In this document: positions 10,632-64,000 of the stretch, piece after piece
How the letters are laid out: the number at the start of each line of letters is the position of its first letter
How positions within the stretch are numbered: position 1 is the first letter of the stretch
Assembly (NCBI GenBank): GCA_000004985.1
Contig: GG738893.1
Direction: 5' to 3' (one strand)
DNA from: Naegleria gruberi
Taxonomy: Eukaryota
Length of the DNA stretch: 64,000 nt
Position numbers and translations under genes: made by a program
Notes under the pieces: model-generated
Seen by the model: only the letters and a program-made list of their open reading frames with translations
Database searches by the model: none
What the model was told of the DNA's origin: nothing

Positions 10632-10647
10632 GTTTCTCCAACTCCTG

Positions 10648-23930: not shown

Positions 23931-24011
23931 TGCAGAAGGTGGGATTTGAACCCACGAAGCTTGCGCAGTAGAACTTGAGTCTACCCCCTTTGACCACTCG
24001 GGAACCCCTGC
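23931..24011 (-). tRNA. tRNA-Leu, anticodon CAA.
   Basis: Minus-strand cloverleaf with acceptor GCAGGGG/CTTCTGC (two G-U pairs) and D-arm CCCG..GGGG. The anticodon stem GTAGA/TCTAC carries loop CTCAAGT (anticodon CAA). A long variable arm is present. The T-arm is GTGGG-TTCAAAT-CCCAC and the discriminator is A. Confidence 0.85.
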
Positions 24012-42161: not shown

Positions 42162-42233
42162 TTTTTTTTAGAATTTAGAATGCCCGCCCAAGTCAACTAC
42201 AAAAAGATCAATTCAATTTAGTACAAGAACACT

Positions 42234-43655
42234 TTACATGTTTTCTCCTTCTTCTGCATCACTATTTGTTTCAATTTCAAGATGTGTTAATTGTTTCATT
42301 TGACTTAAATAATCAGCTCCCTCTGTACCAATATTATTGTAACTAATATCAAGATCTGTCAATTGTTTCAATTCACTAATATACTTTGCTCCCTCATTAC
42401 CAATATTATTGTATTGAATTTTAAGCATTGTCAATTCTTTCAAGTTACTAATATGTTTTGCTCCTTCAGCACCAATACCATTGTAACCAATTTGGAGAAT
42501 TGTTAACTTGTTCAATTCACTTAAATATTTTGCTCCTTCATCACCAATCTCAGTGTAGCTCACATAAATACTTGTTAGATTTTTCAATTCACTTAAATGT
42601 TTTGCACCTTCATTACCAATACGATTGTCACCAATAAAAAGAACTGTTAAATTTTTCAATTCACTTAAATATTTTGCTCCTTCATCACTAATTAATCTAT
42701 TCCCTTGCATATAAAGCTTTGTCAATTCTTTCATGGTACTGATATGTTTTGCTCCTTCATCATCAATATCATTGTTCTCAATAAAAAGATTTGTCAATTG
42801 CTTCATTTCACTTATATATTTTGCTCCTTCTGAACGAATCAAGCTATCACTAATGTAAAGATGTGTTAATTGTTTCATTTCACTGATATATTGAGCTCCT
42901 TTATCACCAAGGCTACTATAACTGATATTAAGAACTTGTAATTGATTCAATTCACTAATATATTTTGCTCCTTCTGTACCAATATTATTGGACTCAATAT
43001 CAAGAGTTGTCAATTGTTTCAAGTCACTTATGTATTTTGCTCCCTCTGTACCAATATTATTGTAACTAATATCAAGATCTGTCAATTGCTTCAATTCACT
43101 AATATACTTTGCTCCTTCTACACCAATATCATTTTCACTAATATTGAGATATGTCAAGTTTTTCAATTCTCTTAAAAATTTTGCTCCTTCTGTACCAATA
43201 TTATTGGCATTAACATAAAGATTAGTTAATTGTTTCATTTCACTAACATGTTTTGCTCCTTCTACACCAATACCATTTTCATTAGTAGTACCCTCAATAT
43301 TGTCATCAATTTCAAGACTTGTAACATGTTTCATCAATGCAAAAACTTTAAAATCAAACGCATCAGTCCTTCTCTCAAATTCAAGTGTTGAAATATTTGC
43401 TAAAAACTGTCCTTGTGGTGGTTTCATTGTATTTTCACATCTTAAAAAAACTTTTGACCTTTCGGATATGACAGCAAACCACTGTTTGGAAACAAGTGCA
43501 CAATTTACCATAAATTGAAAGTCAGAGTTGAAACTTAAAATTTCAAAGAGTACATCATCATAAAATAGGTTAGGCTTGTGTTTTGGTGATTTGTTGGTAT
43601 CAACCATGTGATGATTTTCACCAATCACTTCTTCAGGCATTTTTATTTCATCCAT
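42234..43655 (-). CDS. F-box / RNI-type leucine-rich-repeat protein (FBXL-like SCF substrate adaptor), 473 aa.
   Basis: The N-terminus DDVLFEILSFNSDFQFMVNCALVSKQWFAVIS matches the F-box consensus. About 14 highly regular 24-aa repeats N-N-I-G-x-E-G-A-K-Y-I-S-E-L-K-Q-L-T-x-L-x-I-S follow. Repeat DNA is similar enough to produce mirror ORFs on the opposite strand. Confidence 0.7.
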   Translation of the reverse strand: MDEIKMPEEVIGENHHMVDTNKSPKHKPNLFYDDVLFEILSFNSDFQFMVNCALVSKQWFAVISERSKVFLRCENTMKPPQGQFLANISTLEFERRTDAFDFKVFALMKHVTSLEIDDNIEGTTNENGIGVEGAKHVSEMKQLTNLYVNANNIGTEGAKFLRELKNLTYLNISENDIGVEGAKYISELKQLTDLDISYNNIGTEGAKYISDLKQLTTLDIESNNIGTEGAKYISELNQLQVLNISYSSLGDKGAQYISEMKQLTHLYISDSLIRSEGAKYISEMKQLTNLFIENNDIDDEGAKHISTMKELTKLYMQGNRLISDEGAKYLSELKNLTVLFIGDNRIGNEGAKHLSELKNLTSIYVSYTEIGDEGAKYLSELNKLTILQIGYNGIGAEGAKHISNLKELTMLKIQYNNIGNEGAKYISELKQLTDLDISYNNIGTEGADYLSQMKQLTHLEIETNSDAEEGENM

Positions 43656-44860: not shown

Positions 44861-45828
44861 TTTTTTTGTTGATGATTAGTTTTTATTCGAAATGACTTGG
44901 TGATGTGGACATTCTATGGGAAGAGACACAAATTACTGTTACAAGTGGGGAGGAGGGGTAAAAATCTTACTTTTAATTTAGGGGTGTTGGCTAGGAAATT
45001 ACGAAATAATTGGGGGGTAAAAACATTATTTATTTAATTATTTCTTAACTAATTCTTCAAATTGTGATTTCTTTGGTACTCCACGTTTCTAATTCTATAG
45101 TGGTTCTTCTTCTTGTTCCAATTCCTTCTCTTGTTAAACCTATGGAATTATAGTTGCTGGGAAAGTCTTCTTAACTTTTTCTTTGGTTATTTTTGTCCGT
45201 ATGTGGTGAAGTATAAACCATTGTATTGTGCTGGTTGTTGTTGATTAATCTTCCTTTCTATTTACAAAAGTGTCTTCTAAGGTAATGAATCATCAGTTTG
45301 TACCAATGGTTATCCTTAATTAATTTCTTGATGGTAATTGCTGTAGGAATTCATGAAGTGAAGGTAAGGCGTGTTATTGTTGTTGTGGAAACATTTGGAA
45401 GTGCGTGCTTTGTTTTGGTAGAGGGTTAGTTGTATTGAGGTTTTTTTAAAATATTTTTTTACTTTTATTAAGCTAGCTTTTACAATAAAGAAAAATCAAG
45501 CAAGCTGAAAGCGAAGCTTGGTTTTTCTTAAAATTTTAATAAAATTACATTACACACGAGTGGGGTGGAGAAAATATTATTTTACATACGAGTGGGGTCA
45601 AAACGAAGGACCGTAATTAATGTCTCTTCCCTATTGCATCAAACTGGCTTTTAGAACGTTAGTACTTTTCAATAGCTCAAACATTACAATAAATTGTTAA
45701 ATTTTACTATCCTTTCCTTTCTGGTATTATATATCGAAATTATGAGAACTGTGATCAATAACATAAATTAATAAATGAAGAGGAATTAACCGTTTGGCGC
45801 CTTTTTTAAAAATTCAAATTACGAAAAA

Positions 45829-47650
45829 ATGAAACAAAGACCAACACCTCAAATTCACGATTTATTGAATTCACCTCCACTAACAATAAAACCCCTCAGA
45901 AAAAGCAATAAATCCCTTGATGAAGATGAGAGGTTGTATCATAGTTATTCCGATAGAAAATTAAGACAAAGCATCGGAAAGACAATGGTTGAACTCAGCA
46001 GCCAGAGCAGGGATGTTTCTTCAAGTACCCAAAAAAGACCATCATCTGCAATGAGTGCAAGCATTGTATCACTTCAAGGACCTACACTTGCATCAACAGG
46101 ACAATTCATAATGACTGATTCTGTTCAGTCAACTAAGGGTTATAAATCCCAAGAGGAAGCCAAAATGGAAGATGAATATATCAAGAACTTACAAAAACAA
46201 ATAGGTTTACTTTCTACAGAGCTTCAGTTGCAAAGAAAGATGAATGATGAAACTGAGAAAAAGCTTCATGAAAAAACTGAACCAATTGAGGATCCAATTC
46301 TTACTATTAAGAAAAAGTTTGCTGAGAAGGATGAAAATTATAATCAATTCATTGAAAAATTCAAACAAGAAATTGCTGATAGAGAATCAAAGGTTTGTTT
46401 AATAGAAATTGCTTCTTAACACTTTGAAGATTGTGAAATTGAAAGAAAAATACAAAAAGTGGAAAGATAAGAATTTGAAAGAACGAGAACATTCCAAGTT
46501 GGAAATTCGTACCCTACATGAGAAGTACGTACCAGAGGTCATTAAATTGGAAAAGCAAATTGATATGGTTAATTTGAGAGTTAAACAAGAAACAAAAGAG
46601 AATGAAAGAAAGAATGATGACATTAAAAGTTTCTTGAAAGAAATTGGAGAAATTTCAAAGAAGGTTGAATTTATTCAAATGCAAAAAGACCAAGCAGAAA
46701 AACAACTTCAACCATTAATGGATGAACTGAATATAGTAAAGAAGGAATTACTAAGTTATAATTCTAATAGAGATAAAGATAAAAACGAGATTGAATCTTT
46801 GAAGGGAAGACTGTCAAAATATGAAAAGGAATGGGAGGATGCTCTTCATAACTTGAAGAAAAAAGATTTGGAGACAAAACAGCTTCAATTAGATAACGAA
46901 CTCGTTGCTACAGAAAGAGACAAACTGAAAGAACAAGTGAAAACTCTTAAGGAGAAAAATAATGAACAAGAAACTCAAATTGCAAAACTCCAGACAAAAT
47001 TAAACGAAACACAATGGGATCTTACAAGAGTAAAGGTTAATTATGAGAATTTGTTCAAAGAGAAAACAAATCAAGAAAAAGAAAATGATAAGGCACAAAC
47101 AGAATATAAGGACAATAAGATCAAATATGAAGAAATGAAAAGACAATTCAAGGAAATTCAAGATAAGTTACAAAAGAAGGAGGAAGAGCTTAAATCTTTC
47201 CTCCACACTCAATTTGAAGCTCTTAAACTTAAAAATTCTCAGCTTGAAGAAGCTCTTAGAGAACTCTCCAAAAAAAATGAAGAAATTAGAATTGATAACA
47301 AGAAGATTCAAGAAGAAAATGATAATCTTCAAAGGAATAACAAATTATTTGAGGATGAAAAAGAGCAATATGAGAAGAATGAAATTCAAAGAAAGATTCT
47401 AATCAAGAAACTCAAAAATCAACTCAAACTAAGTCTTGCAGTACAAAATGTGGACAGACAAAACCTTTCTACATTGATGAATTCAAATGTAAATGTTGCC
47501 CAATCAATCAAACAACTTATGGACATTATGAAAGAAAGCAAAGATATTTTAGCTGAAGAAAAGGAAGCAGAAACAATGCCAAATTCTAAACCTCCAAGAC
47601 CTGAAAGTTCATTTGAAGCCTGGGTTTCCAATGGTAAGAAACAAAGGTAA
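45829..47650 (+). CDS. Long K/E-rich coiled-coil protein of about 600 aa. Two exons, 45829..46392 and 46430..47650, with a 37-nt intron.
   Basis: GTTTGT donor at 46393 and TTTGAAG acceptor ending at 46429. The frame moves from 1 to 2, as expected for a 37-nt intron. Heptad-rich sequence runs throughout. Confidence 0.55.
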
Positions 47651-47743
47651 TTAACTGTGTTTACGGAGGTAATTATTTAAGAGACTCAACACAGTTATCG
47701 AAATTATGGATTAAGAGTATGATTGTAAACTAATCCAAAAAAA

Positions 47744-48526
47744 ATGTCTAGATTGCAAATTAATATAACTGGATTCGGACCATTTGCTGGAGTGAAGGAA
47801 AATCCAACTACTTTGATCATATCAAAATTAAAAGATTGTGAATTTTGCCAAGTTCCTATCACTTATAATATTGTTGAAACATCAATGAAAGGAGTTGATG
47901 AATATTTTGGAAATCAAGATGGAAATTCCGATCTGACTAGAATTTATATTCATTTAGGAGTGAGTGGAAATACAATCATGTATGAAATTGAAGAGAGAGG
48001 AAAAAACGAAAAATCATTTAGAGTTCCTGATGAGCAAGGAGAAGCTCCTCAAAAAGAACCAATTAATAATAATTTATGTATTGATAATTATTTAAATTGT
48101 AAATTAAACGTGGATCAGTTAGTTGAGGAAGTGAATGAACATCTTGAAAATTGTAAAACTCATATTCCACTCTCGGATTTAGTATTAGATTCTGCAAATG
48201 ATAAGATTAAATATTCTCTAATTGTAAAATCTACAAAAGATGCCATTTCAGAACAAGAAGATATCAGAAAATTGGAAGATTATACATCTAATTTGGAAAA
48301 ATGTGTTTCTTTAATAACTAAAAATGGAAGTTTTTGCAAAAAATCAAATAATGCTGGATTATTTATTTGTAATTATTGTTACTATTCATCACTACATCAT
48401 ACTCAACCCAAACATAATTGTTATAGCCTTTTCATTCATGTACCTCCACATGATTTAATTAATATTGATAATCAAATTGAATTTGTAAAGGCTCTTGTCC
48501 ATTGCATTGTCAAACAACTCTCCTAA
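47744..48526 (+). CDS. Pyroglutamyl-peptidase I (pyrrolidone-carboxylate peptidase, family C15).
   Basis: INITGFGPFAGVKENPT (N-terminal PCP motif), GLFICNYCYYSSL (catalytic Cys region) and HVPP (catalytic His). Length 260 aa. Confidence 0.8.
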   Translation: MSRLQINITGFGPFAGVKENPTTLIISKLKDCEFCQVPITYNIVETSMKGVDEYFGNQDGNSDLTRIYIHLGVSGNTIMYEIEERGKNEKSFRVPDEQGEAPQKEPINNNLCIDNYLNCKLNVDQLVEEVNEHLENCKTHIPLSDLVLDSANDKIKYSLIVKSTKDAISEQEDIRKLEDYTSNLEKCVSLITKNGSFCKKSNNAGLFICNYCYYSSLHHTQPKHNCYSLFIHVPPHDLINIDNQIEFVKALVHCIVKQLS

Positions 48527-48681
48527 TCGTCTCGAACAAATGTATAATACCCTACCTAATATTATCGTTTCTATTATTCCACCAGCCTTGTTATCATCAC
48601 ATGACAATTCATTATTTAATAAAAATTAAAAAACAATTAAAAAATTCCTAAAGTCTTTTTAGTCTTCATCATAAATGAAAG

Positions 48682-50545
48682 ATGCATCAGCAGTCGAATA
48701 ACAACCATTCACAGCAGCCAACGATCAATCAAACAAGTGGCGGCTCTGGTCATCAACAAAATAAGAAGAAGAATAGATTTGAATCATCAGGTGGTCCTAG
48801 ATTTACAAATGTTGTAGTTACTACAAGTCCTGCTTTTTATTCATTAAATCATCCTTCAAATACTACATCATCATCATCCAATCAACAACAACAAGGAGTT
48901 GGTTCATCAAATGGAGGAAATTCCCTCATGATGACTGGTGGTAATTCTTCTGTTTTATCATCAAGTGGTTCCAATAATAATAATAGCAGCAATACAATGA
49001 ACAATAATCAACCTAAAAGCAAGCCTTATAAAAGTCTTGTCTCTAAACCCGTTGTTCAAATCAAAGGAACACCACAAATATTGGCAAAGAAACCAAGTAC
49101 AGCTGAATCATCATCAAATTTATCTAATAATAATACTATCAGCAACACTCCTGTTGGCAATACACCAAATCAACCTACTATACTACAAAAGAATCCATCA
49201 GAGCCTTCCTCTAGAAGAATTAATCAACATTTACAACCAGAAATTAGTCAAAACTTTACCAGTGGTTCATCACCAACTACTCTAAATACTGGTAGTTTAC
49301 CTCTTACAACTGTAAAATCATCATTGGATGAAAATATTAACAAGCAAGACTCTCCACAAACAACAAATGGTTCTTCTAATGTTGAAAAGAAGAAGGCTTC
49401 TATTGAAATGGTTCCATTGTCTTTTGATAAAAAGTGCTTGAATTTAATTCAAGAAAATTCATCTGGAATGTATAATACAATCCTTGAACTTCAATCAAAT
49501 CAAAACTTACAAGCCATGTCAAATTTATTTCCTAATGATAAGCAAGTTTCTACAGAAAGTAATAATTATTCTGTTATCGGAGTTATTGGAAAACAAGGAA
49601 GTGGAAAATCTAAAATTTTAAACTCATTGATTGGAAGTGGAGCTGAAATTTTCCCACAAGAAGATTTGGAATGTTTTTTGGATTGCAAATACAAAACTAG
49701 TGGTATTGATATCTATAGAACATCAGAACAACAAATCTTTATCGACACTCAACCATTATTTTCATCACAAATTCAACATTCCTTTAATGGAATGAGTATG
49801 AATTCTCTTATGAAACCATTTGAAACATCAGTTGAAGCTGTATCAATTGCTGCCTTGGAAAGTTTTATTGATATTACAAGTTTACAAATTGCATTGTTTG
49901 TATTTAGTGTTTGTCATGTTGTACTTGTAGTAGTTGATCATCAAGCAGATTCACTTGAACAATTTAAAATGTATCAATTCATTCAAACTATTAGAATGTT
50001 ACAACAAGGTGTTCCAACAATTTCACAATGTGGAAAGAGTTCTTCTCAACAAAAACCAACTCTAGAAGGTCATGTTCCAGAAGTTATTTTTGTTTACAAT
50101 AAGGTTAGCCCAACAGATATGAGTGAATTGAATATTAAACATACAGAAAGTTTATTGGAAAGCTACTTTACAAGTACAAGCTTTAGAAAGAATGGATTTA
50201 TTCATCCACATATGTGGCACCATCAATTTAAGAAGAATGACATTGTCAATTTCTTTATGATTCCAATGGAATCTTCAAAGGTACGAATTTTAACAATTGT
50301 GTTATTAATAATTCATCTCTCAATATTTCATTAATATTAAATTAATATAGATTAAGGATGAATACAAGGATTCTATCAATTTATTAAGAAAAGGAATTCA
50401 AAATATGCCAAAACCAAACTTGAAGAAAATGTCTCAAAATGAATGGTTTGGAAATTCTGTTAGAAACTTTGAAGTTATCAAAAAGAGTTACTTTTTACAA
50501 GAATATATTAGAAAGATTACAAGTAGCATGTCCATTCACAATTAG
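48682..50545 (+). CDS. P-loop NTPase-domain protein with a Q/N/S-rich N-terminal region (SMG9-like arrangement; family assignment tentative). Two exons, 48682..50280 and 50351..50545.
   Basis: Walker A VIGVIGKQGSGKSKILNSLIG. GTACGA donor at 50281 and ATATAG acceptor ending at 50350 (70-nt intron). The frame moves from 1 to 2. Confidence 0.45.
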
Positions 50546-50822
50546 GAAAACAATATTGATTTATTGAAAAAACAATTGAACACATTTGAGTATTACAAAA
50601 CATTTTGATTTTTGAAAATTGAAGAATTGAAAAATTCAACAAATTAAAATCACAATTTGAAACTCACAATTTATACATGTGAAGAATAAACATTTTATGG
50701 AAGAACCTAATTCATGTTTTTTCAAGTTGCATTGTCCATATCATTAAATGATACTAAAAAGGCATGAAAATATCAAATGACCTTTCGAATAAAAAATTAA
50801 GTGATTCTTTCATAATTGAAAT

Positions 50823-53131
50823 GTGATTCTACTTGAAAAAAAAATGTCATTTCATCACAACAATGATGGGAGAGATCCGACCAATCATCACCATCCAGAA
50901 AAACAAGAGCAACCAACATCAACATCATCATCATCTCGACTACGCCAAGAAATTCCATCACTAAACTTAACTGAAATTAATAATATTTTTCCAACAACAT
51001 TAACAACAATAACGGAAAACAGTACAATTCATCAATTATCAATAACAAGTTCTGACAATAACAGTTTTGAAGAACCATCAACATCAACTACAACATTAAA
51101 TAGTTGTTCTAATAATAATAATAATATTTCTAATAATAGTAATTCTGATAATAATAATGAAAATATAAATTATAAAGAATTATATGAAAAGGAAGTTGAA
51201 AAGAATAAATTATTAACAACTCAACTTGCTATAATAAATTTACAAAAACAAGATGAATTTGAAATTATTAAAATTATTGAAAATGAATTAAATGATAAAA
51301 TTAATTTAAATTTTATTAAATTTAAATTAAATCAATTAAAAAATTTAAATCAAGAACAAGTATTTACAAATGATTCAATTTTAAACGATTATTCTAAACA
51401 TGAATTAACTAAATTTGAAAATGAAATTTATAAATCTATTGATAAACATCCAATTATAGAAAAAATGACAAAATTAGAAAGTGAAATTAATTTTTTAAAA
51501 TATTCATTAAAATATTCAAATAATTGTTCATCATGTACTGAAAAACAAGAATATTCAGCTAAAATAATACAAAAAGCATTTCGTTCATTTCGTATAAGAA
51601 ATCGAATGAAAATAATTTTTCCCAAATATGACATTATTTCACAACGTAATTCACTAATTAGTGAAATAGTTCAAACAGAACAAACCTATGTTAAATCTTT
51701 AACACTAGTTCAAAGACTATATATAGATCCATTAAAAAATTCAGATTTAACAGATACAATGAGATTTAATTTAACAATTTCACAAATTCAAAAAATATTT
51801 AATAATTTATCAACAATTTTATCAATGCATCGAATTTTCTTGATAAATTTAGAACAAAAATTGAAAGAATGGCCAAATGTTTTTATTGGTGAAAGTTTTA
51901 TGAATCAATCTTTCTTTTTCCTTTTTTATGTTGAATATATAAATGGTTATAATGAATCTTCAAATACTTTGAGAGAATTGAGATTGAAAAATAGGGAATT
52001 TTTAACATTTTTAAATGAAACTAAAAAACATAAGGAATGTAAAGGTTTATCACTTGAATCTTTTTTAATTTTACCAATTCAAAGGTTTGTTTTTTTTTAA
52101 ATACTTTCATTACAATAATATTTAAATACTAACATTACAATAATATTACAATAATATTTAAATACTTTTATTACAATAATATTAAAATAGATTACCAAGA
52201 TATAAATTACTATTAAAAGGAGTATTGAAACATACATTACCTGATCATACAGATTATCAAAATTTAAAATCTGCCTATAATAGAATAAGTGCCATCAATA
52301 ATGCAATTAATTCTAAAAAGAAGGAACATGAAACTTATTTAATTATCAACAAAATGTTCAATGAAATGAAAATATTTTCAGTTCAACAAGATTATCATTT
52401 GTAAAGTATANNNNNNNNNNNNNNNNNNNNNNNNNNNNNNNNNNNNNNNNNNNNNNNNNNNNNNNNNNNNNNNNNNNNNNNNNNNNNNNNNNNNNNNNNN
52501 NNNNNNNNNNNNNNNNNNNNNNNNNNNNNNNNNNNNNNNNNNNNNNNNNNNNNNNNNNNNNNNNNNNNNNNNNNNNNNNNNNNNNNNNNNNNNNNNNNNN
52601 NNNNNNNNNNNNNNNNNNNNNNNNNNNNNNNNNNNNNNNNNNNNNNNNNNNNNNNNNNNNNNNNNNNNNNNNNNNNNNNNNNNNNNNNNNNNNNNNNNNN
52701 NNNNNNNNNNNNNNNNNNNNNNNNNNNNNNNNNNNNNNNNNNNTTATATTGAACAGGAGGGTGTTATTCATGCTTTATCATTTGAGAGAGAATCACCAAT
52801 TGCCAATACTCACATTGATTGGTCAAAGAAACTCTACAAACAACTTCATTTAACTAAGGAAGATGAACAAATTAATAATGTTAAACAATTTGAAATGAGA
52901 GAAATTTTGAGAATTTGTGATCAGGTATTTCACAAATTTAGTACAACCTCCTCATTGAACAAATTGGAATCAACAGTTTTTGAAGAACCTTCACCTAGAA
53001 ATTCAATGATGAAAACTCTTTCATTCCTCAAGAAATCACCTTCACTCACTGCTGTTAAACATACAGAAGATGAAGAACATGAAGTTAAGAAATTAATTGA
53101 TACCATACAAGTTAATACTGAACATTTTTAA
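50823..53131 (+). CDS. Rho guanine-nucleotide exchange factor (IQ motif + DH domain + probable PH domain). The gene spans the assembly gap and has at least one intron (about 52087..52198).
   Basis: The N-terminus is N/S-rich. The IQ-like motif is AKIIQKAFRSFRIRNRMK. The DH domain starts LISEIVQTEQTYVKSLTLVQRLYIDPL. The end of the DH domain continues after the intron as LPIQR|ITKIKLLLKGVLKHTLPDHTDYQNLKSAYNRI, the classic PRYxLLLKELLKHT. The downstream ORF after the gap (52744..53131) is in the same orientation. Confidence 0.6.
52391..52743. other. Assembly gap (353 N).
   Basis: Run of n characters. It interrupts the RhoGEF gene. Confidence 0.99.
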
Positions 53132-53231
53132 CTAATTCAATTGAATTAAAAGATTATTTAATAAAATAATTTTAAATTTATTTATTTCAAAAAAACATAA
53201 AATATTCTCAATATTCTCAATATTATTATTA

Positions 53232-55870
53232 TTAAATAGTCAATTTCATTTCATTAATTTCTTGTTCACGTTGTTCCTTCAAACCATGAATTGATTCCAA
53301 AGCAAAAGGTGGGAAATAAGCATAACTAAATTTATCTTGTAATTGATTATTAAAAATTGATAATTCCTCATCTTGACTATAAAAAGTGGAATGAATTAAT
53401 TGATTATTATTTGAATCTAATGGATTAAATTTAGTCTTGTAATGAATATTCCAATATAAAGCATAAACAATTGATAAAATTAATAATAAACACATTAAAA
53501 ATAAATGAATAAAAGTAACATCTCCTGATTTGGCAAAGAATAACATGACATAAAATTGAGCAAATATTATACAAAAGAATGTCATTTGTACAATTAATTT
53601 GTTACGTTCTCTATAGGAAGTAATATCAGGTGATAATTTGTAACGTGCTTTATCATTTTTAGAACATAATCTTGAAATATTATATCTATCAATTAAATGT
53701 TTTACAATAAAATAGAAAAATCCAATTGGTAAAATTAATGGAACAAAAACTGAAAATGTTAAAATAATTCCAAAGAATGCAATCATATAACCATATTCTA
53801 ATGGTAAATCAAATTCACTAATTTTAGTTGCATTTTCCTTTTCCTCTTCAGTTACACTTTTAAATCTCAAATAAAAATAAATAATTAAATCTTTTAATCT
53901 AATCATATCAACAAAACATCCTAATAAAGAATATTGAATTGTATAATTAATAAAGAATGCACCTGATTGTGGTAAAAATAAATAATCAAATAAAGCTTGC
54001 CAATTTGAATCACCTGATCCACTAACTGAATGACTAAATTGTTCAAAATATCTAATAACACCATCTAATGAAGTTAATAATAAAACTGGAAGTATTAATG
54101 TTGATAAAACAACATAAATAAATAATCTTAATAAATAAACACTTGATTCTTCTGAATAGGATTTATATTTTTCAAATCTAGTTAATAGTGGTATAATCAT
54201 TGGTAATAATTGTGCAATAATAAATAATAATAATGTTGGTAAATAGTGAAATAAAATATCACCTGTATATCCACTTGCTTCTTTAATTTGATTAAATGCT
54301 TTAGCTGCTTGTGGAATACGATTAGCAATTGATTGAATAGATGAAACAATTGCCAATGGACTTGTAAAAAATAATAAGAAAAATACTAATAGTAAATTTA
54401 CAATTGCAACTCTAAATGTTCTTTGATTTTTAGATAATGAAAAATTTGACCAATTTAAATCTTGTGGTTCAAATGTTTTCTTTTCAATACGAAATTCAAT
54501 TAAATCATTTGAATCATTTGAATCATTGATACAAGTAGTAGTAGTATATTAGTAGTAGGAGTAGTATTATCATTCATCATATTATTATTCAATTTAAATA
54601 ATTTTAAACCAGTTTCATCCATTGCTTTACATTTAGATGCATCTTGAATTGATTTAAAAATAACATGTCCATATCCAGTTGATTTTGGTTGATTTTTAAA
54701 AGTTTCTTCCCATTCCATAATTAAATGTTCTAATTTTACTTTCTTTTCATTCCAATAATTTAAAGCATCAACTCTTTCAATAATTTTAGAACAACATTTA
54801 CCTTTTTTGGATGATTCGAATAATTTAATTAATTTAACATGTTTGTTTGTTTGATTTTGAACATATTCATAATGTTTAATTTGTTCAATTGAATTTTCAA
54901 AAGATTCTTGTAATTCAATTCTTTCACTTGTATCATGAATTAAACGACATGAATAAATGTTTAAATTTGGAAATATAGATTCAACTGATTTTCTAAATTT
55001 AGTATTATCAGTAATTTGAATTGGAATATCTTTTAATAAAACACTATAATTACTAATCATATTTAAAGTACTATTTGAATCATTTTCAAATCCATCCATA
55101 TTTATATATTGATTAACAAATTTAGAATTAACAAATCTATACATTAAATAAAATATTAAAATTGAAAATAAATAAAATAAAATAACATGTGCATATAATC
55201 TATCTGTTAATGATAATACCATATTAACACTTGTCTTGTATAAAAATGAATCAGTTTCAATATTTGTACTATTTTGATTCTTTGAAATTACATTTAAATT
55301 ATTCATTGTATTAGAATTACTAATTTGTCCTGTTAAATGTAATGGTAATAATACTGATAATCCAATTAATGTAAATAATCCTGTAAATAATATCATTTGA
55401 TGTGAATACCATAAATAAACACTAACTTCATGTCCATACAATTTACCAATTCTTTCATATTCACTTTCAAATATTAAAAATTGATAAATTCTTTTAAAGA
55501 ATCTTTTAAATACATTTCTTTCATTCTTATCATCATTTATATTAGTATTACCACTTCCAATATTATTATTAGTATTATTAATATTAAAATTATTATTGGA
55601 TGATGATGATTTTTTACGTTTCCATAAACGTAAATTTCTCAAACAACAAAATAAAATCAACAAGCCTAAAACAAAAACACAACCATCAAGAATTAAAATA
55701 AAACTAACACCGGAATGATTAGTTTGTAATTGTAAAGCATAATTAGTTTCATTGATACTTGATGATGATGCTGATGCACCACCACCATCGGCACCAATGG
55801 CCAATAATGATGATGATAAAATACCACCGCCACCAACAGCTATTGGTGATGACGTCATTTTAATGATCAA
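53232..55870 (-). CDS. OSCA/TMEM63/CSC1-family mechanosensitive (calcium-permeable) channel. An apparent frameshift or short intron lies at about 54360-54560 inside an ACT/AAT repeat.
   Basis: 54500..55870 encodes N-terminal TM helices plus a cytosolic domain (YLWYSHQMILFTGLFTLIGLSVLLPL, RLYAHVILFYLF). 53232..54356 encodes the 7TM C-terminal block (RSN1_7TM-like: LLPMIIPLLTRFE, YLLRLFIYVVL, FFINYTIQYSLLGC). The two ORFs are collinear. Confidence 0.65.
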
Positions 55871-56934
55871 ATTTGTTGTGTCTAGTCTTCAAGTAATTAT
55901 ATTAGTGCAAACTTTAATGATGATCAAAAAAGCAGGCAGTGGAGAAGGAGGATCAGTTATATTACTACTGCTTCTTTGATTATTTTTTTGTTAATGATAT
56001 TGATGATTGTGGATGAATATGATAATTGCGTTTGTAATTTTTGAAATTAGTTTTTGAGAACTACAGTTTAGTTTCGAACTGTAGATGAAATTTTCGAATA
56101 ACTGTAGTTCAAATGTATAAAATTTCAAGTTACTACATGTTTTGTAAGAATGTAATGGACTCCATTCACTCAACCTGCAAAATCATAACCATTCTATAAA
56201 AGTACAAATTTAAGATTGTAGGCTCTCTATTGCAATGTTCTGCATTTCTACATTTTCATCCAATTAAATATCAAAAGACTCTAACGCATTCCATTGTCCG
56301 CTCAATTACTCCAACACTAACTATTGAGGACACCCCAAATATTCCCAATTTAGTAGAACTCTTTCTCCAGTAACAATGCAACATGATGAACTCAATTATT
56401 GTGCGTGATGATGTATTTTAAACATGTACTGTTTGTAGCATCAAGAGAGGAACATTGTTTCATATGAATGGACAACGGAATTGCATCATTATGAACCATC
56501 ATTATAAAATCTTTCCATCTTGCTGATTCGCAAAATATCTTAGTTATATCTTCTCAGTCACTATATTGATTACCAACATTAAAATTTTCCTTAAATATTT
56601 TCCATCTTGTTGTGGAGAGAAAGAGCGATGGGTGGTAGCTAGGCTTGGGTTGGTTGCATTGTTTTTTTGGCTATGTGTTGAGGATGGTTGAAAACGTAAC
56701 AAGCCTTGTTGAAAATCTTCAAAAAAAAAGAAACAACAACTACCCACTCACAACAATAGAGTTACTGCTATTGAACATAACCAGTTGCACTTTTGGTAAT
56801 TTTTTAAATCCTCATTTGTACATATTTACGAATAGACATATTGGGGAAGGACCATTTTGCATTTCACTTAGTAAATACAACAACACTGCAACACTAATTA
56901 TAATACATCTATATATTGAATATTTTGAATAAGA

Positions 56935-59315
56935 ATGAGAATATTATCGAGGTGGTCACCTTATTATTATCAATCAAATGATAAACCTAAATATAAAGTT
57001 AATGGACATTGGATGTTAATTAAAACAATAGTATTAATACTATTATCTATATCAATATATTATATTACAAAACATTTTATAATAGATTCAAATCAATCAA
57101 CAATTACTGGAAATACATTAACTACTGAAAACAATTATTATTCATCATTAACACATCATACACAATTTCATTCACAATATATGAATGAAACTATTACAGA
57201 AAATGAACCATCATCGAATGATAATACTAAAATTTGTAATTTAATTGCAAGTTATGAATTGGATCAATGTCAATTTGCTATGGATAATTGTAATGCACCA
57301 ATGGGTGGATTTTTAAATTATATTTTTATTAGATATTGTACTTTTAAACAGTTAGAACCTTTATTTTATATTTGTTCTTTATTTTGGGTTATTTTCTTAT
57401 TTTACATGTTAACATGTAAGTTTATATATATACTAGTATTTAAATTGAGTATTTTATGTTAAATATTATTGGAATTACTATATATATAGCAACTGCTGAG
57501 GATTTCTTTTGTCCAAGTTTAGCTGAAATTTCAAGAATATTAAGATTACCACCAGATGTTGCTGGTGTTACTTTCCTAGCCTTGGGAAATTCATCACCAG
57601 GTATGTTTTTAATTAATACTATTAATAACTTTACACTTAATGATTTAACTATTATTAAATATATAGATATATTTTCTATATTAGCAGGTATATTTTCTGG
57701 ATCATCTGGATTTGGATTAGGTGAACCAATTGGAAGTGGATTTGTTTGTGTTTCAGTTTTAATTGCAATTGTTTCATTTGTAGTTAAAGATGCAACAGTT
57801 TCAGCATTTCCATTTTTGAGAGATGTTATTACTTATTTAATTGGTGTTTTATTTGTATTTTTAATTGTTATATTTCAGGGTTCAATTAATTTATGGCAAA
57901 GTATTACATTTCTAGTTATTTACTTTTTATATGTTTCATTTGTAATTGGTTGTAAATTTTACAATGATTACAAAAATAGAAAGAAGAAAAATCAACAAGA
58001 AGATCAACAAGATAAAGATGATGCAAACGAGGAAGAAGAAGAATCTAATTCAAGTGGATGGTTAGAAGGAAAGAAACCAATATTACAATGTAAGAATATT
58101 GATGAAATTCCTGAAAATGTTAAAAAACAATTGAAATCCAAATTGTTTTATGGAGCTGTTTATAATCCTAAATTTGGAGTTGCTTATTTATCTAATGAAC
58201 CTATTAATACTATTCCAAAAGGATGTTGTACTGAAAGGACACCTCTCAATAGAAAATCATCTTTACAAGAAGAAGATAATTCTATTAATAATATTGAAAT
58301 GAATGGATCAATTATCATTGAAAATCACTTTACAATTAATACATCATCAAATGATAATCAAGATTTGATTCACTGTCATGAACATGATCATCATCATTTC
58401 AGATTTTCATCATTTAAAGAAATAATTTCAACTAAATATCAAGAATTTATTGAATGGATTGAGTGGAATGAAAAATCCAAATTAGATAAGATATTCTTTA
58501 TAATAGAAGCACCTTCAATTCTAGCTAGAAATTTAACAATTCCAAAGGCAGATCCAAATGATTGGAGTAAATTATTTGCCATTCTATGTCCAATATTCAT
58601 TCCACCATTTACTTTATTTACAATTGGATATATTTCATTGAATATTCCAGGTAGTGAATTTCCAATTTGGGTATTAGGATCAATGTGTGGTTTATTCATT
58701 TCAATTTTAATTCATTTTACATCAAAGAAATGTAGAAAACCATTTTATCACATAATATTTGTAATTAGTTCATTCATCATGTCAATTTTATGGATTTTTA
58801 CAATTGCCAATGAATTGGTGAATGTTTTAAATTCATTTGGTATTTTATGGAGTATTAGTGATTCTGTATTATCTATTGTTTTATCAATTGGTAATACCTT
58901 CTCAGATATGGCTGCTGATTTGGCTGGTATGTTTATTTTTTTTAATACTTTTTTAACATGTTTACAATATTTTACAATATTTAACAATACTATTTAAATA
59001 GTTGCAAGACAAGGTTATGTTGAAATGGCAGTTGCTGCTGCATATGCAGCACAAGGAATGAGTTTATTAATTGGATTAGGTATTGCTACAACTGCTAATT
59101 TTGTCATGACTCGTAAACCATTTGAAATTGAATTTTCACCAACTTTAATTGTTACTTTTATATTTTTATTGGCAACTTTAATTTCATCTTTAATTGTTAT
59201 TCCAATTGCCAAATTTAAAGCTCCTAAAATATTTGGATTATTTTTATTGACTATATATCTTGTATATTTGGTTATTACAATATTAATTGAATTTAAAATT
59301 TTATTAAATCATTAA
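56935..59315 (+). CDS. Cation/Ca2+ exchanger of the CaCA superfamily (CCX/NCLX/NCKX-like), with at least 4 exons.
   Basis: Alpha-1 repeat GVTFLALGNSSP after a 70-nt intron (57423..57492). A second intron lies at 57600..57684. Alpha-2 repeat SIVLSIGNTFSDMAADLA, then the intron 58925..59005 (GTATGT...AATAG). The final exon has the terminal TM helices and ends at 59315. Confidence 0.65.
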
Positions 59316-59366
59316 AATTTAATTTATTTTTATTTATTTATTAATTTAAATTGTTTTTATTTTACA

Positions 59367-60806
59367 TTAAATTGAACATTTTCTTGAAATGACATGAGTT
59401 TGACATGTTGAAACAATTTTTGAAATCCAATTATTAACTCTCTCCTTATTATTACCCCAATCAGAATAACCATATTTACACCTACTATAAATAGCAATTG
59501 TACTTTTTTGAATTGAAGATTGAACTGATAATAATTGAATTGTAATATAATCAGGATATTCTTGAAATTTTGTTTTTTGTAAAAAAGTAAATAAATTAAT
59601 ATCATCATTTCTGCATAACATTTCAACACCTTCCTCATATGGTAATACTTCTGATAATAAAATTTCTTTTAATTCTAAAATGGAAATACTATTAAAAATA
59701 GGTGAAAATTGTTCTCTAATTGGAACATTACATTGAAATAATTGTACAGTATTATTTGATTGTTGGACAATAAATGAATCTATATTTGGATAAATTAAAT
59801 ACCAATTTGGTGAATTTGTTACTTTTAATTCATTAAAATGTAAAATATTAAAATTAGAAAATTGATAAAATAATAAATTAACATTTTTAAAACAATGTTC
59901 TTTACAAACATGATTAAATTTTCCAATGGTTAATAAAAATTGACCTAAATGTAATGCTAATTTAGCAATTGGAATATCATTTAAATTACTAAATTTGGAA
60001 AGTAATATTTCTTGTAAAAGTAAAAATGCTTCCTGCCCATCGAAACATTGTTCAAATACATAATTTTTACAAGTCTTATTTTGTAATTTAATTCCTTGTT
60101 TAAAATATTGATAAATATTTTCTACATCTTGATTTGAAAATTTTTTAAAAATTACATTATTACTTATATAGTCATTTCCAAATTCATGAATAAATTTATA
60201 ATCACTATTTGGACATCTTTGTAATAATATTGATTGTTCAGTACATTGTAATTTACTATATTTATGTGGACTTGAATTTCCAATTATGGAATTATTATTT
60301 ATATTATTATTAGAATTATTAATAGGAGTCATACAGGATTGACAAGATTGATTATTTTGAGATTGTACAAGTTGTGAAAGAGAAGGAAAAGCATTTGGAT
60401 CACTTAATATAGTATTTAGTGTTGGATTATTAGAAATTAAATTTCCATTATTAGTAATTGTATTATTATTATTAGATTGTTTCAAATAAGATTGATGATA
60501 CTGTTGTTGTTGTTGCTGAGATTGAAATTGATTACCAATCAATGCATAATATCCACTATTATTACAACAAGTATTTTCAGAATTATTACTACTTGTGGAT
60601 GTTCCACCAGTAGTACTTGAAATATTACTACCACTACTATTACTAATATTACAATTATTGTTAGGAGTACCACCAGTACTAGATAACATTAATTGTTGTT
60701 GCTGTTGTTGTTGTTGATGTAAATAGATTTGTTGTTGCTGTTGTTGTTGTTGAGTAAGCATAATAGGTTGATTCTTTTTGAGTTGGTAAAATGTCTGAAT
60801 TGACAC
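59367..60806 (-). CDS. DEP-domain protein with a poly-Q/N-rich N-terminus, 479 aa.
   Basis: DEP-like segment FSNQDVENIYQYFKQGIKLQNKTCKNYVFEQCFDGQEAFLLLQEIL. The N-terminal third is Q8/N-rich low complexity. Confidence 0.5.
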   Translation of the reverse strand: MSIQTFYQLKKNQPIMLTQQQQQQQQIYLHQQQQQQQQLMLSSTGGTPNNNCNISNSSGSNISSTTGGTSTSSNNSENTCCNNSGYYALIGNQFQSQQQQQQYHQSYLKQSNNNNTITNNGNLISNNPTLNTILSDPNAFPSLSQLVQSQNNQSCQSCMTPINNSNNNINNNSIIGNSSPHKYSKLQCTEQSILLQRCPNSDYKFIHEFGNDYISNNVIFKKFSNQDVENIYQYFKQGIKLQNKTCKNYVFEQCFDGQEAFLLLQEILLSKFSNLNDIPIAKLALHLGQFLLTIGKFNHVCKEHCFKNVNLLFYQFSNFNILHFNELKVTNSPNWYLIYPNIDSFIVQQSNNTVQLFQCNVPIREQFSPIFNSISILELKEILLSEVLPYEEGVEMLCRNDDINLFTFLQKTKFQEYPDYITIQLLSVQSSIQKSTIAIYSRCKYGYSDWGNNKERVNNWISKIVSTCQTHVISRKCSI

Positions 60807-61225
60807 ATGAGAGAGTGTAATGCGGTCAAATTTAATGTTTTGGAGGAGGAATTACTTAACGAATCGCCGATTAATATTATATTGGATTTGTTGTCACAGC
60901 TGTGGTATTGATGATAGAGTTCAAATATTTGGATATTTCAATCCTTTCGTCGGGAATATAACCTTATTACAACTCTTTTTATTGTTGACTATGTCTTTCG
61001 TTGTGATGATGATACTTAATGAGGGAGGAGGAGATACAGAGGTGGTAGTGGTGATAATCGAATGGTTAAATGAGTTCAGAGTTTGTGTGGACATGATCAA
61101 AACCTTAATCGGCGATCATCAAAAGGCGAAAAACATGTTGATGATTTAAACATTCTCCACTACCTCCTTCTTCTTTCCAATAAATTTATTTTCCAATATA
61201 AATGTAATAACACAGACATTAAATC

Positions 61226-61546
61226 TTATTCTTCATCATTGGAAATGGATGGAACTCTTGGAGTCTTTTTAATGATAACTTTTGGTATTTGTTTCTTTTC
61301 CATTCCAAGTAATTCTCTAACAATTTTAAATCTAATTAAAAAGTAATGAAGTAAAATGTACCATCCTCCAACAATAACTACTAATGATGCTAATAACATG
61401 AATAATCTATATAATATTGGATGATTATTTGTATCATTTTGTTCCGATGGTGATGGCGTTGAACCCATAACAACATTCATTATCATCACCAACATCATTA
61501 TAAATACTAATATTTGTGATGTTCCTTTCAAGAATAGTTTGATCAT
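61226..61546 (-). CDS. Small two-TM membrane protein of 106 aa (hypothetical).
   Basis: Two hydrophobic helices (ILVFIMMLVMIMNVVMG and LFMLLASLVVIVGGWYILL) followed by a basic tail. Confidence 0.3.
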   Translation of the reverse strand: MIKLFLKGTSQILVFIMMLVMIMNVVMGSTPSPSEQNDTNNHPILYRLFMLLASLVVIVGGWYILLHYFLIRFKIVRELLGMEKKQIPKVIIKKTPRVPSISNDEE

Positions 61547-61726
61547 TTTTTTAAAGGCTTTGAACGTGTTGCTTTGATTGTTGGTGAAGACTTGTCATTG
61601 GAATTGCACGTTTTTAGAATAACAGTAACAATACAAAAAATTAATAATTTATAATTAGATTAGGTTTTTTCATACTCATTCAAAGTATGATATTTACATT
61701 GATTAGAGAGAGAGAGAGGGATTTTG

Positions 61727-62025
61727 TTATTTTTGTTCTTTTGCTTGTTTGGCAGCAATCTTTTGTTGGAGTTTTTGGGCATCTCTTTCTTTACGTTGGA
61801 GAGGAGTTAAACCATCTTCATCTCTTCCCTTTTCCTTTTGTTTTCTGGATTGAGCACGTTGACGGTCAATATCACGTTGATTACCACCTTTAAATTTTAA
61901 TTACCATTTGATGATCATGTTGATGTTATATATTTGTTGTTAGTATCGATAAGTTGTTGTTGTGTTGGTAAGTTGTGTTATGAATGTCGGTATTGTGGTG
62001 CATGAACTCGAAACTTACGAGACAT
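61727..62025 (-). CDS. SERF: SERF/4F5-family small EDRK-rich protein, 56 aa. Two exons, 62025..62019 (ATGTCTC) and 61887..61727, with a 131-nt intron.
   Basis: The spliced product is MSRGNQRDIDRQRAQSRKQKEKGRDEDGLTPLQRKERDAQKLQQKIAAKQAKEQK, matching the SERF N-terminal MxRGNQR(D/E)LxRQ consensus. The donor is GTAAGT directly after ATGTCTC and the acceptor is TTTAAAG. Confidence 0.65.
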
Positions 62026-62192
62026 GATGAGTGAGGTGTTGTTGTTTTATTTTTTATTAAATTTATTTCCATTACAAAAAGGCTGACGAACTACAATCGC
62101 ACTTGGTAATCATTTCTCAAACGAGACCTGTAAATTCATCAATCTTGTTTAGGGTAAAGGTACTAATTCATGAATTCTTTGAATATGAAAAT

Positions 62193-63991
62193 TTATTTTT
62201 GATAAATTAAAGTTCTAATAGTACGTGGTGGAACATCAATTTGAGCATGATATAAATGATTATCCTGATCAATTAAATTGAAAGATAAAATACTTTCTTG
62301 TTGATTTTGAACAATGGTAATAATCTTATTATCAGGTGTTTGGAATGAAGTAATTAAAGTTTGATCATTTACAGGTCTAAACATGTGAATTCTCTTTGAA
62401 TCTTGTGTTAAATATTTAGAGAAATGACCCATAAAATAATAAGTTGGTTGAATGTGAATTTCCTGAGTTCTATTATCAGCAATAATAGGAGCATCACACC
62501 AATTTTGTAAATGATTTGGACCACCTTGCCAATCTAAAATACAATTCCAATCAGTCCATCCACTTGCATAATTATTTAAATCATTAATAATATCAAATCC
62601 ATATTTTTCACCACGTGTCCAATTACCCAATGAAACACCAGGTCCCCAACATGCTTCAGTTGCTAATAAGAATTTTTCTTTATCAACTTGATGAGCACGT
62701 GATAGATTTTCATATTCACCATCAACATACCAATGGAATGCCATACCATCTACATATTTACTTGCTTCTGGATCTGAATAAATTGTTGATGCCCATTTTT
62801 CAACAGAATCTCTATTATGATCAAATATCATGATTTTCAAATTTGGATGATCTCTTCTCATTCTAGGTCCTAAATGATTTTTAATAAAATCTCTTTGATA
62901 TTCAGGTGTATAACAACAAGCATCCCATGGTCTATTTTTAATAAATATATTATTGAAAATTAAATATTATTGTAATTGAATATTATTAAATATTTAATAA
63001 ATATATTATTGTAATTAAATATTATTAAATATTATAAAAAAAATACATACGCAGCAAATTCAGGTTCATTTTGAATAGTTAAACCCCAAATTCTATCAAT
63101 ACCTTCATTTTGATAGGCAGTAACAAATTTAGAAAAGTGCAATGCCCATGAATCTAAAATATTTGTAGCATTAATTAAACCATTTGGTTGATTTGAACCA
63201 TTCATTTCATGATTATATTTCATCCTATATATATATTTATTTTAATATATTAAAATAATTAAATAAATAAATAAAATATTAAAATAAATAAATTAAATAA
63301 AATATTAAAATATTAAATATTAAATAAATATTGAAACATACCAAGCAGGTGGAGACCAAGGTGATAAAAATATTTTAAAAGATTCACCATTTTTAGGATA
63401 ATTTAATTTAACTTGATTTAAAACTCTTTTAATTAAAGGTAAAGTAAATATTTTATCTCTTCTAATATTAAAATTAGTTAATTGATAATCATTTTCAACA
63501 TCATCACAACTATAATTATCTAAACTAAAATCACATGAATTCATATGAATTCTAGCAGTAGTATAATTTAATCCTTTAGAAGTCCAATATAAACTTAGAA
63601 TTTCATTTCTAATTTGTTCATTCATTGTTGCAAATGTAAATGCAGAGGCTTCAGTTAAAGCACAACCAAATCCAATAATTGATTGATATTTAATAGATGA
63701 ATCTAATTTAAATGTTTTTAAATTTGGTTTAATATTACTATTAGGAATCCATTGAATTGGTTGATTTAATAATTTTAATCTATCACCTGTATATAATGAT
63801 GATTGTACAACTGAAATACTTGAAATTATTTTACCATTCATATTAATACTATTAATTTTATTATTATTATTATTAATAGTAATACTACTATGAATAGTAC
63901 TAATTAAATAACTCAACACTACTAATAAAACAATCATCACATTCTTAGAATGAAGATGAAGTTTGTTACCATGTTGTGGTTGTTGTTGCAT
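62193..63991 (-). CDS. Glycoside hydrolase family 30 (glucosylceramidase-like) protein, secreted, with at least 3 exons. Introns lie at about 63224..63330 and 62935..63050.
   Basis: Signal peptide with N-rich linker, then GFGCALTEASAF, LSPWSPPAWY and TIQNEPEF (the NEP acid/base motif). The C-terminal beta-sandwich region is present. The introns are almost pure A/T with GTATGT/GTAAGT-type donors. Confidence 0.7.
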
Positions 63992-64000
63992 TTTTTAAAA

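Follow-up and report, generated by a model that had tools for sequence, protein, structure and literature searches.

At about 50 kb in a 64,000-nucleotide (nt) stretch of contig GG738893.1 from Naegleria gruberi (assembly GCA_000004985.1; this whole stretch is referred to as the window), the guanine-plus-cytosine (GC) content falls abruptly. The locus raises the question of whether the step marks a chromosomal domain, foreign or mis-joined DNA, or a property of the genes themselves. We found that the step marks where a cluster of five AT-extreme transcription units begins, with about four-fold lower odds of GC at every class of silent site, and that what deviates is each transcription unit by itself and not the region as a whole.

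Position of the step and silent sites on its two sides

The overall GC content was 32.4% at positions 1-50500 (the left side) and 24.9% at positions 50501-64000 (the right side). When calculated in 1-kb intervals, it ranged over 0.27-0.38 as far as 50 kb, and most values beyond 51 kb fell within 0.19-0.31 (means of 0.324 ± 0.024 and 0.248 ± 0.036, respectively; Mann-Whitney p = 1e-6); the value of 0.158 for 52-53 kb is an artefact, in which the 333 N of a scaffold gap were counted in the denominator. The best single change-point by maximum likelihood was located at 50,220-50,300 (log-likelihood gain of ~145), and intervals of 300 nt with a GC content below 0.20 accounted for 0 of 1005 on the left and 37 of 252 on the right. 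The abrupt change near 50 kb that had been proposed in a preliminary description, made from the DNA letters alone, was thus borne out, while its size had been overestimated (from about 35% to about 20%): just the gene bodies on the right reached 21-26%, with 200-nt minima of 13.5%. The right side was not uniformly low, and two patches (55.9-56.9 and 60.8-62.2 kb) were at 31-34%, so that a low GC content from the RhoGEF gene onward applied to gene bodies and not to these patches. The gap is located at 52411-52743, 20 bases away from the coordinate (52391) given previously. The view that it does not by itself explain the shift was correct, since the compositional break is found 1.5-2.2 kb upstream of it, in contiguous sequence, and does not coincide with it. 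The features on which the following analysis depends are:

50220-50920, boundary zone: change-point, then the stop codon of an SMG9-like gene (50546), the ATG of the RhoGEF gene (50846), and about codon 25 of RhoGEF, where GC at third codon positions (GC3) collapses
50846-53130, plus strand: AT-extreme gene 1, RhoGEF with an IQ motif and a DH domain (PF00621, E = 6.5e-32); GC3 0.09
52411-52743: scaffold gap of 333 N within the RhoGEF gene, the only N run in the window
53232-55858, minus strand: AT-extreme gene 2, CSC1/OSCA-like channel (Pfam RSN1_TM, PHM7_cyt, and RSN1_7TM); GC3 0.09-0.10
55871-56934: divergent promoter spacer between the CSC1 and Na+/Ca2+ exchanger genes; 31.5% GC, normal
56935-59315, plus strand: AT-extreme gene 3, Na+/Ca2+ exchanger family (PF01699, E = 2.6e-19)
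59367-60761, minus strand: AT-extreme gene 4, DEP-domain protein (PF00610, E = 9e-7, below the curated cutoff); GC3 0.09
60807-62192: patch of normal GC content (32-34%), which contains two small conserved genes
61226-61546, minus strand: DUF4750-family small membrane protein (PF15938, E = 1.4e-6, above the cutoff); GC3 0.22
61727-62025, minus strand: SERF-like small gene (PF04419, E = 1.4e-7; 55 amino acids, MSRGNQRDIDRQRAQ...)
62193-63991, minus strand: AT-extreme gene 5, GH30 glucosylceramidase (PF02055 and PF17189); GC3 0.07-0.13

The DH domain agreed with the earlier assignment of a RhoGEF gene at 50823. Twenty left-side and eight right-side open reading frames (ORFs) were compared, and odds ratios (GC odds left/right) are given with 95% confidence intervals. 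GC3 was 0.259 ± 0.028 on the left (n = 20) and 0.097 ± 0.017 on the right (n = 8), with no overlap between the distributions (p = 6e-7), in accordance with the dominance of A/T-rich codons noted previously. The GC content decreased at four-fold degenerate sites (0.181 on the left and 0.060 on the right; odds ratio 3.46, 2.57-4.67), in C-ending two-fold codons (0.243 and 0.066; 4.58, 3.57-5.89), in G-ending two-fold codons (0.278 and 0.090; 3.90, 2.83-5.39), and in intron interiors (0.229 and 0.071; 3.91, 2.57-5.95), the right-side value for introns being 0.083 when the short CSC1 intron was included. Among the possibilities raised in the preliminary description, a different mutational regime was therefore supported in the form of a silent-site regime, with GC odds 3.5-4.6 times lower at four-fold, two-fold, and intron sites. 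A translational bias confined to codons was ruled out, because intron interiors shifted alike (3.91) and 3' tails had a GC content of 4-10%. On the other hand, codon position 2 (0.309 and 0.303; 1.03, 0.95-1.13) and promoter-type spacers (0.305 and 0.320; 0.93, 0.84-1.04) were unchanged, and GC was equal on both sides in the 600 nt preceding the start codons.

Along the right-side genes, GC3 was 0.23 over the first 25 codons and dropped to ~0.06 thereafter (left side, from 0.31 to ~0.25), and the 3' intergenic tails of the AT-extreme genes (51 and 101 nt) had 3.9% and 9.9% GC, respectively. In the five transcription units, the AT-extreme part accordingly starts near codon 25 and continues through the 3' end, taking in most introns as well as the 3' tails, and its silent-site GC content is 6-9%. 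At the level of specific codons, the relative use on the right and left was.14 vs.39 for TTC,.12 vs.44 for CAC, and.14 vs.45 for AAG. Introns on the right had been described as nearly pure A/T, and this applied to five of them (3-15% GC), the sixth being the short CSC1 intron (22.6%). The exon-intron GC contrast was kept on both sides (left, 0.33 vs 0.23-0.24; right, 0.24 vs 0.07-0.10). In the AT-extreme genes, introns were longer (mostly 74-119 nt vs 37-80 nt for confident left-side introns) and carried short duplications in tandem, with 10-39 nt per unit and 2-7 copies, at 52096-52189, 62939-63045, 63242-63336, and 58961-58989, which suggests slippage. The duplicated unit in the RhoGEF intron contains a TACTAAC-like branch-point motif.

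The long N and Q runs described for the right side were enriched there, and their length was modest (at most N5 and Q8). N runs of at least 3 numbered 11 per 2,995 amino acids on the right and 3 per 10,928 on the left, in line with the ordinary low-complexity levels reported left of ~50.6 kb, except that the SMG9-like gene already has such runs (5 N runs per 816 amino acids in the SMG9 and peptidase genes of the left flank together). The protein composition of GH30 was compared with that of its N. gruberi paralogue on another scaffold. The fractions of the amino acids F, Y, M, I, N, and K and of G, A, R, and P (FYMINK/GARP) were.338/.190 in the window copy vs.339/.204 in the paralogue, and the shift in GH30 is essentially synonymous because this content is equal in both proteins. 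For an AT-rich protist, the N. gruberi genome is unusual in that its promoters are generally less AT-rich than its gene bodies; on the left side of the window, four-fold sites (0.18) and introns (0.23) also had a lower GC content than spacers (0.30).

It is unlikely that the step is the border of a regional domain, i.e. an isochore-like block with low recombination and little GC-biased gene conversion, or a late-replicating block, in which all neutral DNA from ~50.5 kb is shifted AT-ward. Five consecutive large genes are affected, with the intermediate SMG9-like gene (GC3 0.19) at the edge, and an equal, about four-fold change in GC odds at all silent-site classes is what altered mutation or fixation bias would produce. 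However, the promoter-type spacers inside the block are those found to be unchanged above, GC3 changes within ~25 codons of each start codon, and the SERF-like intron (30.5% GC) and the DUF4750 gene, both located between the AT-extreme DEP and GH30 genes, are not shifted. The interior of the SERF-like intron had 32% GC vs 8.3% in introns of AT-extreme genes (p = 2e-13), and the GC3 of the DUF4750 gene was above that of the AT-extreme genes (p = 9e-5), with a value of 0.24 for its C-ending two-fold codons. The SERF-like and DUF4750 genes are housekeeping-type small genes with a normal N. gruberi composition, and because they stay normal between AT-extreme genes, the transcription unit is identified as the unit that deviates. 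The low GC3 of the pyroglutamyl peptidase gene on the left flank is mirrored by a relatively low GC3 in its Naegleria lovaniensis orthologue, and so gives no evidence for a gradient toward the step. No telomere-like arrays were seen within the window. These results do not support the isochore boundary suggested in the preliminary description, where a subtelomere-like domain was also considered, and no description of compositional domains, isochores, or GC-biased gene conversion in Naegleria was found in the literature searched.

Vertebrate isochores, and the regions of differing GC3 along yeast chromosomes, shift as a whole, with intergenic DNA and every gene of the domain moving together. The window resembles them in its abrupt change of silent-site GC within a chromosome, in the involvement of several consecutive genes, and in the equal relative effect per site class; it differs in that promoter spacers, a neighboring intron, and two interleaved genes are unshifted, and in its visible scale of ~13 kb, from about 50.85 kb to the end of the window. 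Since the spacers and the two interleaved genes are unshifted, this is not a true isochore. The left arm of chromosome C of Lachancea kluyveri, which is ~1 Mb in size, GC-richer, and uniform in coding and non-coding DNA, has been attributed to introgression and altered recombination. The sharp intrachromosomal boundary, the strong effect at third codon positions, and the unicellular eukaryotic host are common to both cases, whereas the deviation in the window is AT-ward and proceeds gene by gene, and the one gene placed by phylogeny is native.

Possible causes of a shift confined to gene bodies

As the cause, we tentatively infer, at somewhat less than an even chance, that the five AT-extreme genes are rarely transcribed native genes, the silent sites of which have relaxed to an AT-biased mutational equilibrium. 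Such genes would be facultative, and the forces that favor GC elsewhere, namely GC-biased repair linked to transcription or recombination, or gene conversion, would not act on them; nor would selection for C- or G-ending two-fold codons, and their silent sites could then approach a strongly AT-biased equilibrium. Slippage in the resulting AT-rich DNA may add the N and Q runs and lengthen the introns by tandem duplication. The clustering would arise because facultative, lineage-specific genes are neighbors, as we propose. The low codon adaptation on the right (TTC, CAC, and AAG) is consistent with this explanation.

Several points weigh against the relaxation of rarely transcribed genes. The pre-gap exons of RhoGEF have a GC3 of 0.03-0.12, far lower than that of the post-gap exon (0.21). 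The non-coding evidence consists of six introns with 448 interior nt; internal duplication in several of these introns makes the sites non-independent, and the CSC1 intron (22.6% GC) is an outlier among them. The term "rarely transcribed" derives solely from codon usage and the type of gene. The spacers (30% GC) and the SERF-like intron (30.5%) sit far above the proposed equilibrium, which this reading leaves unexplained, and the visible extent of the AT-extreme genes is ~13 kb. A further possibility, which we regard as doubtful, is that some transcription units of N. gruberi form a distinct class, in which a process limited to the gene body drives all silent sites to ~6-8% GC; candidates for this process may be context-independent cytosine methylation followed by deamination, or, in facultatively silent genes, missing GC-biased repair linked to transcription or recombination.

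Repeat-induced point mutation (RIP) in fungi, including Leptosphaeria maculans and Neurospora, leaves AT-rich blocks in the genome. RIP blocks are similar to the right side in being sharp-edged, AT-rich stretches beside DNA of normal GC content, and differ in that the window has unshifted indices, intact ORFs, and unchanged protein composition. RIP-type indices on the right and left were 0.75 vs 0.66 for TpA/ApT and 1.55 vs 1.52 for (CpA+TpG)/(ApC+GpT), and a RIP-type AT-rich region was ruled out by these indices together with the intact ORFs and the NEP and TEA motifs retained in GH30, which we take to be catalytic. The strand asymmetry expected of transcription-associated mutagenesis, namely depletion of C on the coding strand with T>A and G>C skews, was not obtained on the right either: C (0.054) exceeded G (0.017) in introns, and A exceeded T and C exceeded G at four-fold sites, which does not fit.

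A chromatin-targeted form of hypermutation, in which heterochromatic gene bodies undergo context-independent (CX) cytosine methylation and deamination of 5-methylcytosine converts C to T on both strands, has little likelihood in our estimate. In its favor, the effect is specific to transcription units, sharp-edged, and without a consistent strand asymmetry, and the observed/expected ratio of CpG was lower in right-side coding sequences (0.24) than in those on the left (0.39) or in spacers (0.65 on both sides). Cytosine methylation in N. gruberi has been reported in all dinucleotide contexts and in 447 regions; it is sparse and affects transposable elements and 112 mostly silent genes (PMC12344493). 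Like the present case, it is a gene- or region-specific DNA state in the same organism with no CpG preference, and it could cause a context-independent loss of C. On the other hand, a connection of methylation with base composition has not been reported. Only 0.6% of genes are methylated, and methylation genome-wide is 0.28% (PMC12344493). Furthermore, the H3K9me3/H3K27me3 state in N. gruberi has been reported on transposable elements and not on repressed genes (bioRxiv 10.1101/2025.03.17.643675), and the unchanged RIP-type indices also argue against this mechanism.

Selection at the transcript level is comparably improbable. Under this explanation, AU-rich coding sequences are favored for post-transcriptional control, and introns become more AT-rich in order to keep the exon-intron contrast needed for splicing. 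In trypanosomatids, codon GC3 governs the mRNA level. The specificity for transcription units, with promoters and neighboring genes spared, the uniformity over codon classes, the unchanged protein composition of GH30, and the exon-intron GC difference maintained on both sides are all compatible with such selection. However, introns and the 51-nt and 101-nt 3' tails shift as much as codons, the first 25 codons are spared, selection on any one silent site should be very weak when a gene is weakly expressed, and direct evidence for such regulation in Naegleria is absent.

Gene structures and native origin of the right side

Details of gene structure, together with the left flank, are as follows:

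47744-48526, plus strand: pyroglutamyl peptidase (Peptidase_C15), NAEGRDRAFT_71905, 100% identity to the N. gruberi protein; GC3 0.15
48682-50546, plus strand: SMG9-like gene (PF10220 Smg8_Smg9, E = 1.6e-5, above the curated cutoff)
50281-50350, plus strand: intron of the SMG9-like gene, 70 nt, 17% GC
52085-52190, plus strand: RhoGEF intron 1, 106 nt, 11% GC, with tandem 36-nt units
from ~52400, plus strand: RhoGEF intron 2, which enters the N gap
52745-53130, plus strand: last RhoGEF exon, post-gap, 127 amino acids, GC3 0.21, 31% GC; its membership in RhoGEF depends on the sequence of the gap
54480-54532, minus strand: CSC1 intron, 22.6% GC
57416-57489 (15% GC) and 58927-59001 (13% GC), plus strand: Na+/Ca2+ exchanger introns
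59002-59315, plus strand: last exon of the Na+/Ca2+ exchanger gene, GC3 0.077
62019-62025 (exon 1, 7 nt, ATGTCTC), 61888-62018 (intron, 131 nt), and 61727-61887 (exon 2, 161 nt), minus strand: parts of the SERF-like gene
63342-63991, 63051-63224, and 62193-62931, minus strand: GH30 exons
63225-63341 (3% GC) and 62932-63050 (6% GC), minus strand: GH30 introns

The SMG9-like gene is intermediate in composition (GC3 0.19; GC at four-fold sites 0.09), and its N-terminal half is rich in N, Q, and S. As a check of the scaffold join, the post-gap exon at 52745-53130 was searched for a PH domain or any other Pfam match, and no match was found. The public CSC1 protein (NAEGRDRAFT_71908/XP_002673147; 322 amino acids) showed 100% identity across 86% of the C-terminal 7TM ORF (374 amino acids). 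The upstream ORF with RSN1_TM and PHM7_cyt (54533-55858) seemingly lies beyond the public model, which is probably truncated to the C-terminal part. The DEP protein contains N-rich tracts and two Q8 runs. The SERF-like gene is absent from the ORF lists because of its tiny first exon (7 nt), and its intron has the form GTAAGT...TACTAAC...AG. The GH30 ORF is intact. In the divergent promoter of the CSC1 and exchanger genes, a palindromic motif (ACTACAGTT/AACTGTAG) occurs in three copies within 50 nt (56060-56108). As a promoter motif common to both sides, AACTGTAG/ACTACAGTT was rejected: it is a local triplet, with 4 matches in the window vs 1.8 expected. On the left side, the sole Rfam/ARAGORN match in the window was tRNA-Leu(CAA) (23931-24011, minus strand), located in a divergent spacer. 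An ORF at 42234-43655 (minus strand; 473 amino acids) comprises ~14 copies of a 72-nt unit (24 amino acids) at 42201-43367; this array has a higher-order period of 216 nt (70-73% matches) and encodes a repeat protein.

The window is N. gruberi nuclear DNA. ORFs on both sides were 100% identical to predicted N. gruberi proteins of one 337,165-bp scaffold, and locus tags run consecutively across the boundary from NAEGRDRAFT_71905 (peptidase) to 71908 (the CSC1 fragment), with two annotated genes between them. A metagenome contig from an independent strain (ENA ERZ929261, run ERR1078381) showed 99.1% identity over 45683-49451 in the same gene order (3.8 kb with 17 mismatches and 8 gap openings); the contig stops at 49451, in the low-complexity part of the SMG9-like gene, short of the boundary. 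This N. gruberi-type strain could serve as a source of polymorphisms and of independent evidence for linkage. No independent copies of right-side ORFs were obtained by exact look-up.

GH30 was the sole right-side gene placed by a tree (neighbor-joining, 296 columns, 100 bootstraps). A search with its C-terminal exon gave Willaertia magna as the top match (55%), followed by a cluster including the N. gruberi paralogue of another scaffold (60%). In the tree, the window copy grouped with this paralogue (bootstrap 88), and both were found with W. magna in a heterolobosean clade (99). An intron after "NEPEFAA" is common to the window copy and the paralogue and is absent in W. magna. A copy of the paralogue in run ERR1078381 (Logan) had a GC3 of 0.21-0.28 and 32% GC overall, compared with a GC3 of 0.07-0.13 in the window copy. 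Judged from the tree and the intron position, GH30 is native in origin. The preference for A over T among A/T-ending codons was the same on the left and right (Gly,.44/.44; Pro,.70/.70; Val,.29/.29; Thr,.52/.49; AGA,.71/.71), as was the A[AT]ATAG style of 3' splice sites; a comparison of branch-point motifs between the two sides was uninformative.

The comparison with N. lovaniensis, a synteny check that the preliminary description had recommended, was run and carries little weight, since synteny was poor on both sides of the boundary. The peptidase was the only colinear gene and the last with a detectable orthologue (49% protein identity to N. lovaniensis and 44% to N. fowleri; colinear tblastx match at 10079-11086 within the compared segment PYSW02000048.1:206507-227607), and the SMG9-like gene is not an orthologue of the neighboring gene in that species. 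The N. lovaniensis locus (PYSW02000048.1:206507-227607) had no match in the window right of 48.6 kb, which means little because micro-synteny on the left is also poor. The PPR and UDPGP genes (25.5-29 kb) are adjacent in both species with 74-79% amino acid identity, and the peptidase is ~4 kb away from them in N. lovaniensis and ~20 kb in N. gruberi. GC3 in N. gruberi was 0.10-0.16 below that of N. lovaniensis orthologues.

Horizontal acquisition or introgression of an un-ameliorated block, the donor being a Willaertia-like heterolobosean, a giant virus, or a mobile element, is very unlikely. The right-side gene bodies are similar in composition to W. magna (GC3 0.12-0.16, locus GC 25.8%), no Naegleria orthologue was found for CSC1, and its only relative found (33% identity) is on an AT-rich contig with 26.5% GC. 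The contig carrying this relative is 11.3 kb in length (Logan ERR14790941), with a GC3 of 0.09-0.21. However, GH30 groups with the N. gruberi paralogue and not with W. magna, and a donor block would bring AT-rich spacers, whereas those observed have 31-34% GC and are interleaved with native small genes. W. magna is AT-rich throughout, with spacers of 13-23% GC, and a Willaertia-like origin was ruled out by these spacers and by the GH30 grouping. The right-side genes contain spliceosomal introns and cellular domain sets, with no integrase, capsid, or transposase domain (Pfam). Scans of viral contigs with the Na+/Ca2+ exchanger, CSC1, and DEP genes detected no relatives; this, and the presence of only cellular Pfam domains, ruled out a viral origin.

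An assembly artefact, in which the right side is a contaminant from a Dictyostelium-like AT-rich amoeba or an unrelated mis-joined piece, can be dismissed as highly improbable: the shift precedes the gap in contiguous sequence, GH30 is sister to the N. gruberi paralogue with an intron position in common, right-side spacers and two small genes are of N. gruberi-type composition, codon A:T preferences equal those on the left, and locus tags are consecutive. The contiguity, the GH30 placement, the codon preferences, and the locus tags likewise give no support to the scaffolding join of unrelated DNA considered previously. Two native regions may have been mis-joined at the gap, but this would leave the composition unexplained. 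The observations that might suggest an artefact are the presence of the gap, the lack of matches to the N. lovaniensis locus right of 48.6 kb (set against the equally poor micro-synteny on the left), the N and Q runs with ~25% GC, which are dictyostelid-like, and the top word-index matches of the DH domain, which were Dictyostelium proteins (36-38% identity); however, the 38% identity falls in the motifs that are usually conserved in DH domains. When the right-side proteins were concatenated for a word-index search, DH-domain matches from Dictyostelium, animals, and fungi were obtained, and no Naegleria match. The genome of Dictyostelium is AT-rich throughout, with N and Q homopolymer runs, and dictyostelid intergenic DNA is far more AT-rich than its exons. 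The right side resembles Dictyostelium and W. magna in its GC3 of ~0.1, its AAT, AAA, and TTA codons, its N and Q runs, and its AT-rich introns; in contrast to these genomes, which are AT-rich throughout, its AT-extreme gene bodies lie among spacers of 31-34% GC and have the A:T preferences of N. gruberi. An origin from Dictyostelium was ruled out by the GH30 tree, the spacer composition, and the codon A:T preferences. The region is not contamination, and genes of this kind may be mishandled by composition-based filters for contamination or horizontal gene transfer, as well as by gene finders for which typical genes were the training set.

Base composition at the scale of transcription units

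Intragenomic heterogeneity of GC content is usually described as regional, in the form of isochores, introgressed arms, or RIP blocks. In this window, it occurs at the scale of transcription units, and promoters and interleaved genes at a distance of a few hundred bases are spared. If a distinct class of transcription units, as outlined above, is true, the base composition of a gene would be a heritable read-out of its long-term activity or chromatin state, and such genes would expose the raw mutational equilibrium of the organism. Methylome, histone-mark, and RNA-seq data already exist for N. gruberi. If the pattern is genome-wide, a class of Naegleria genes, probably facultative or silent ones, could be recognized by a simple sequence marker. 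A free-living discoban would then also offer a natural system for telling apart the effects of chromatin, GC-biased repair, and mutation bias.

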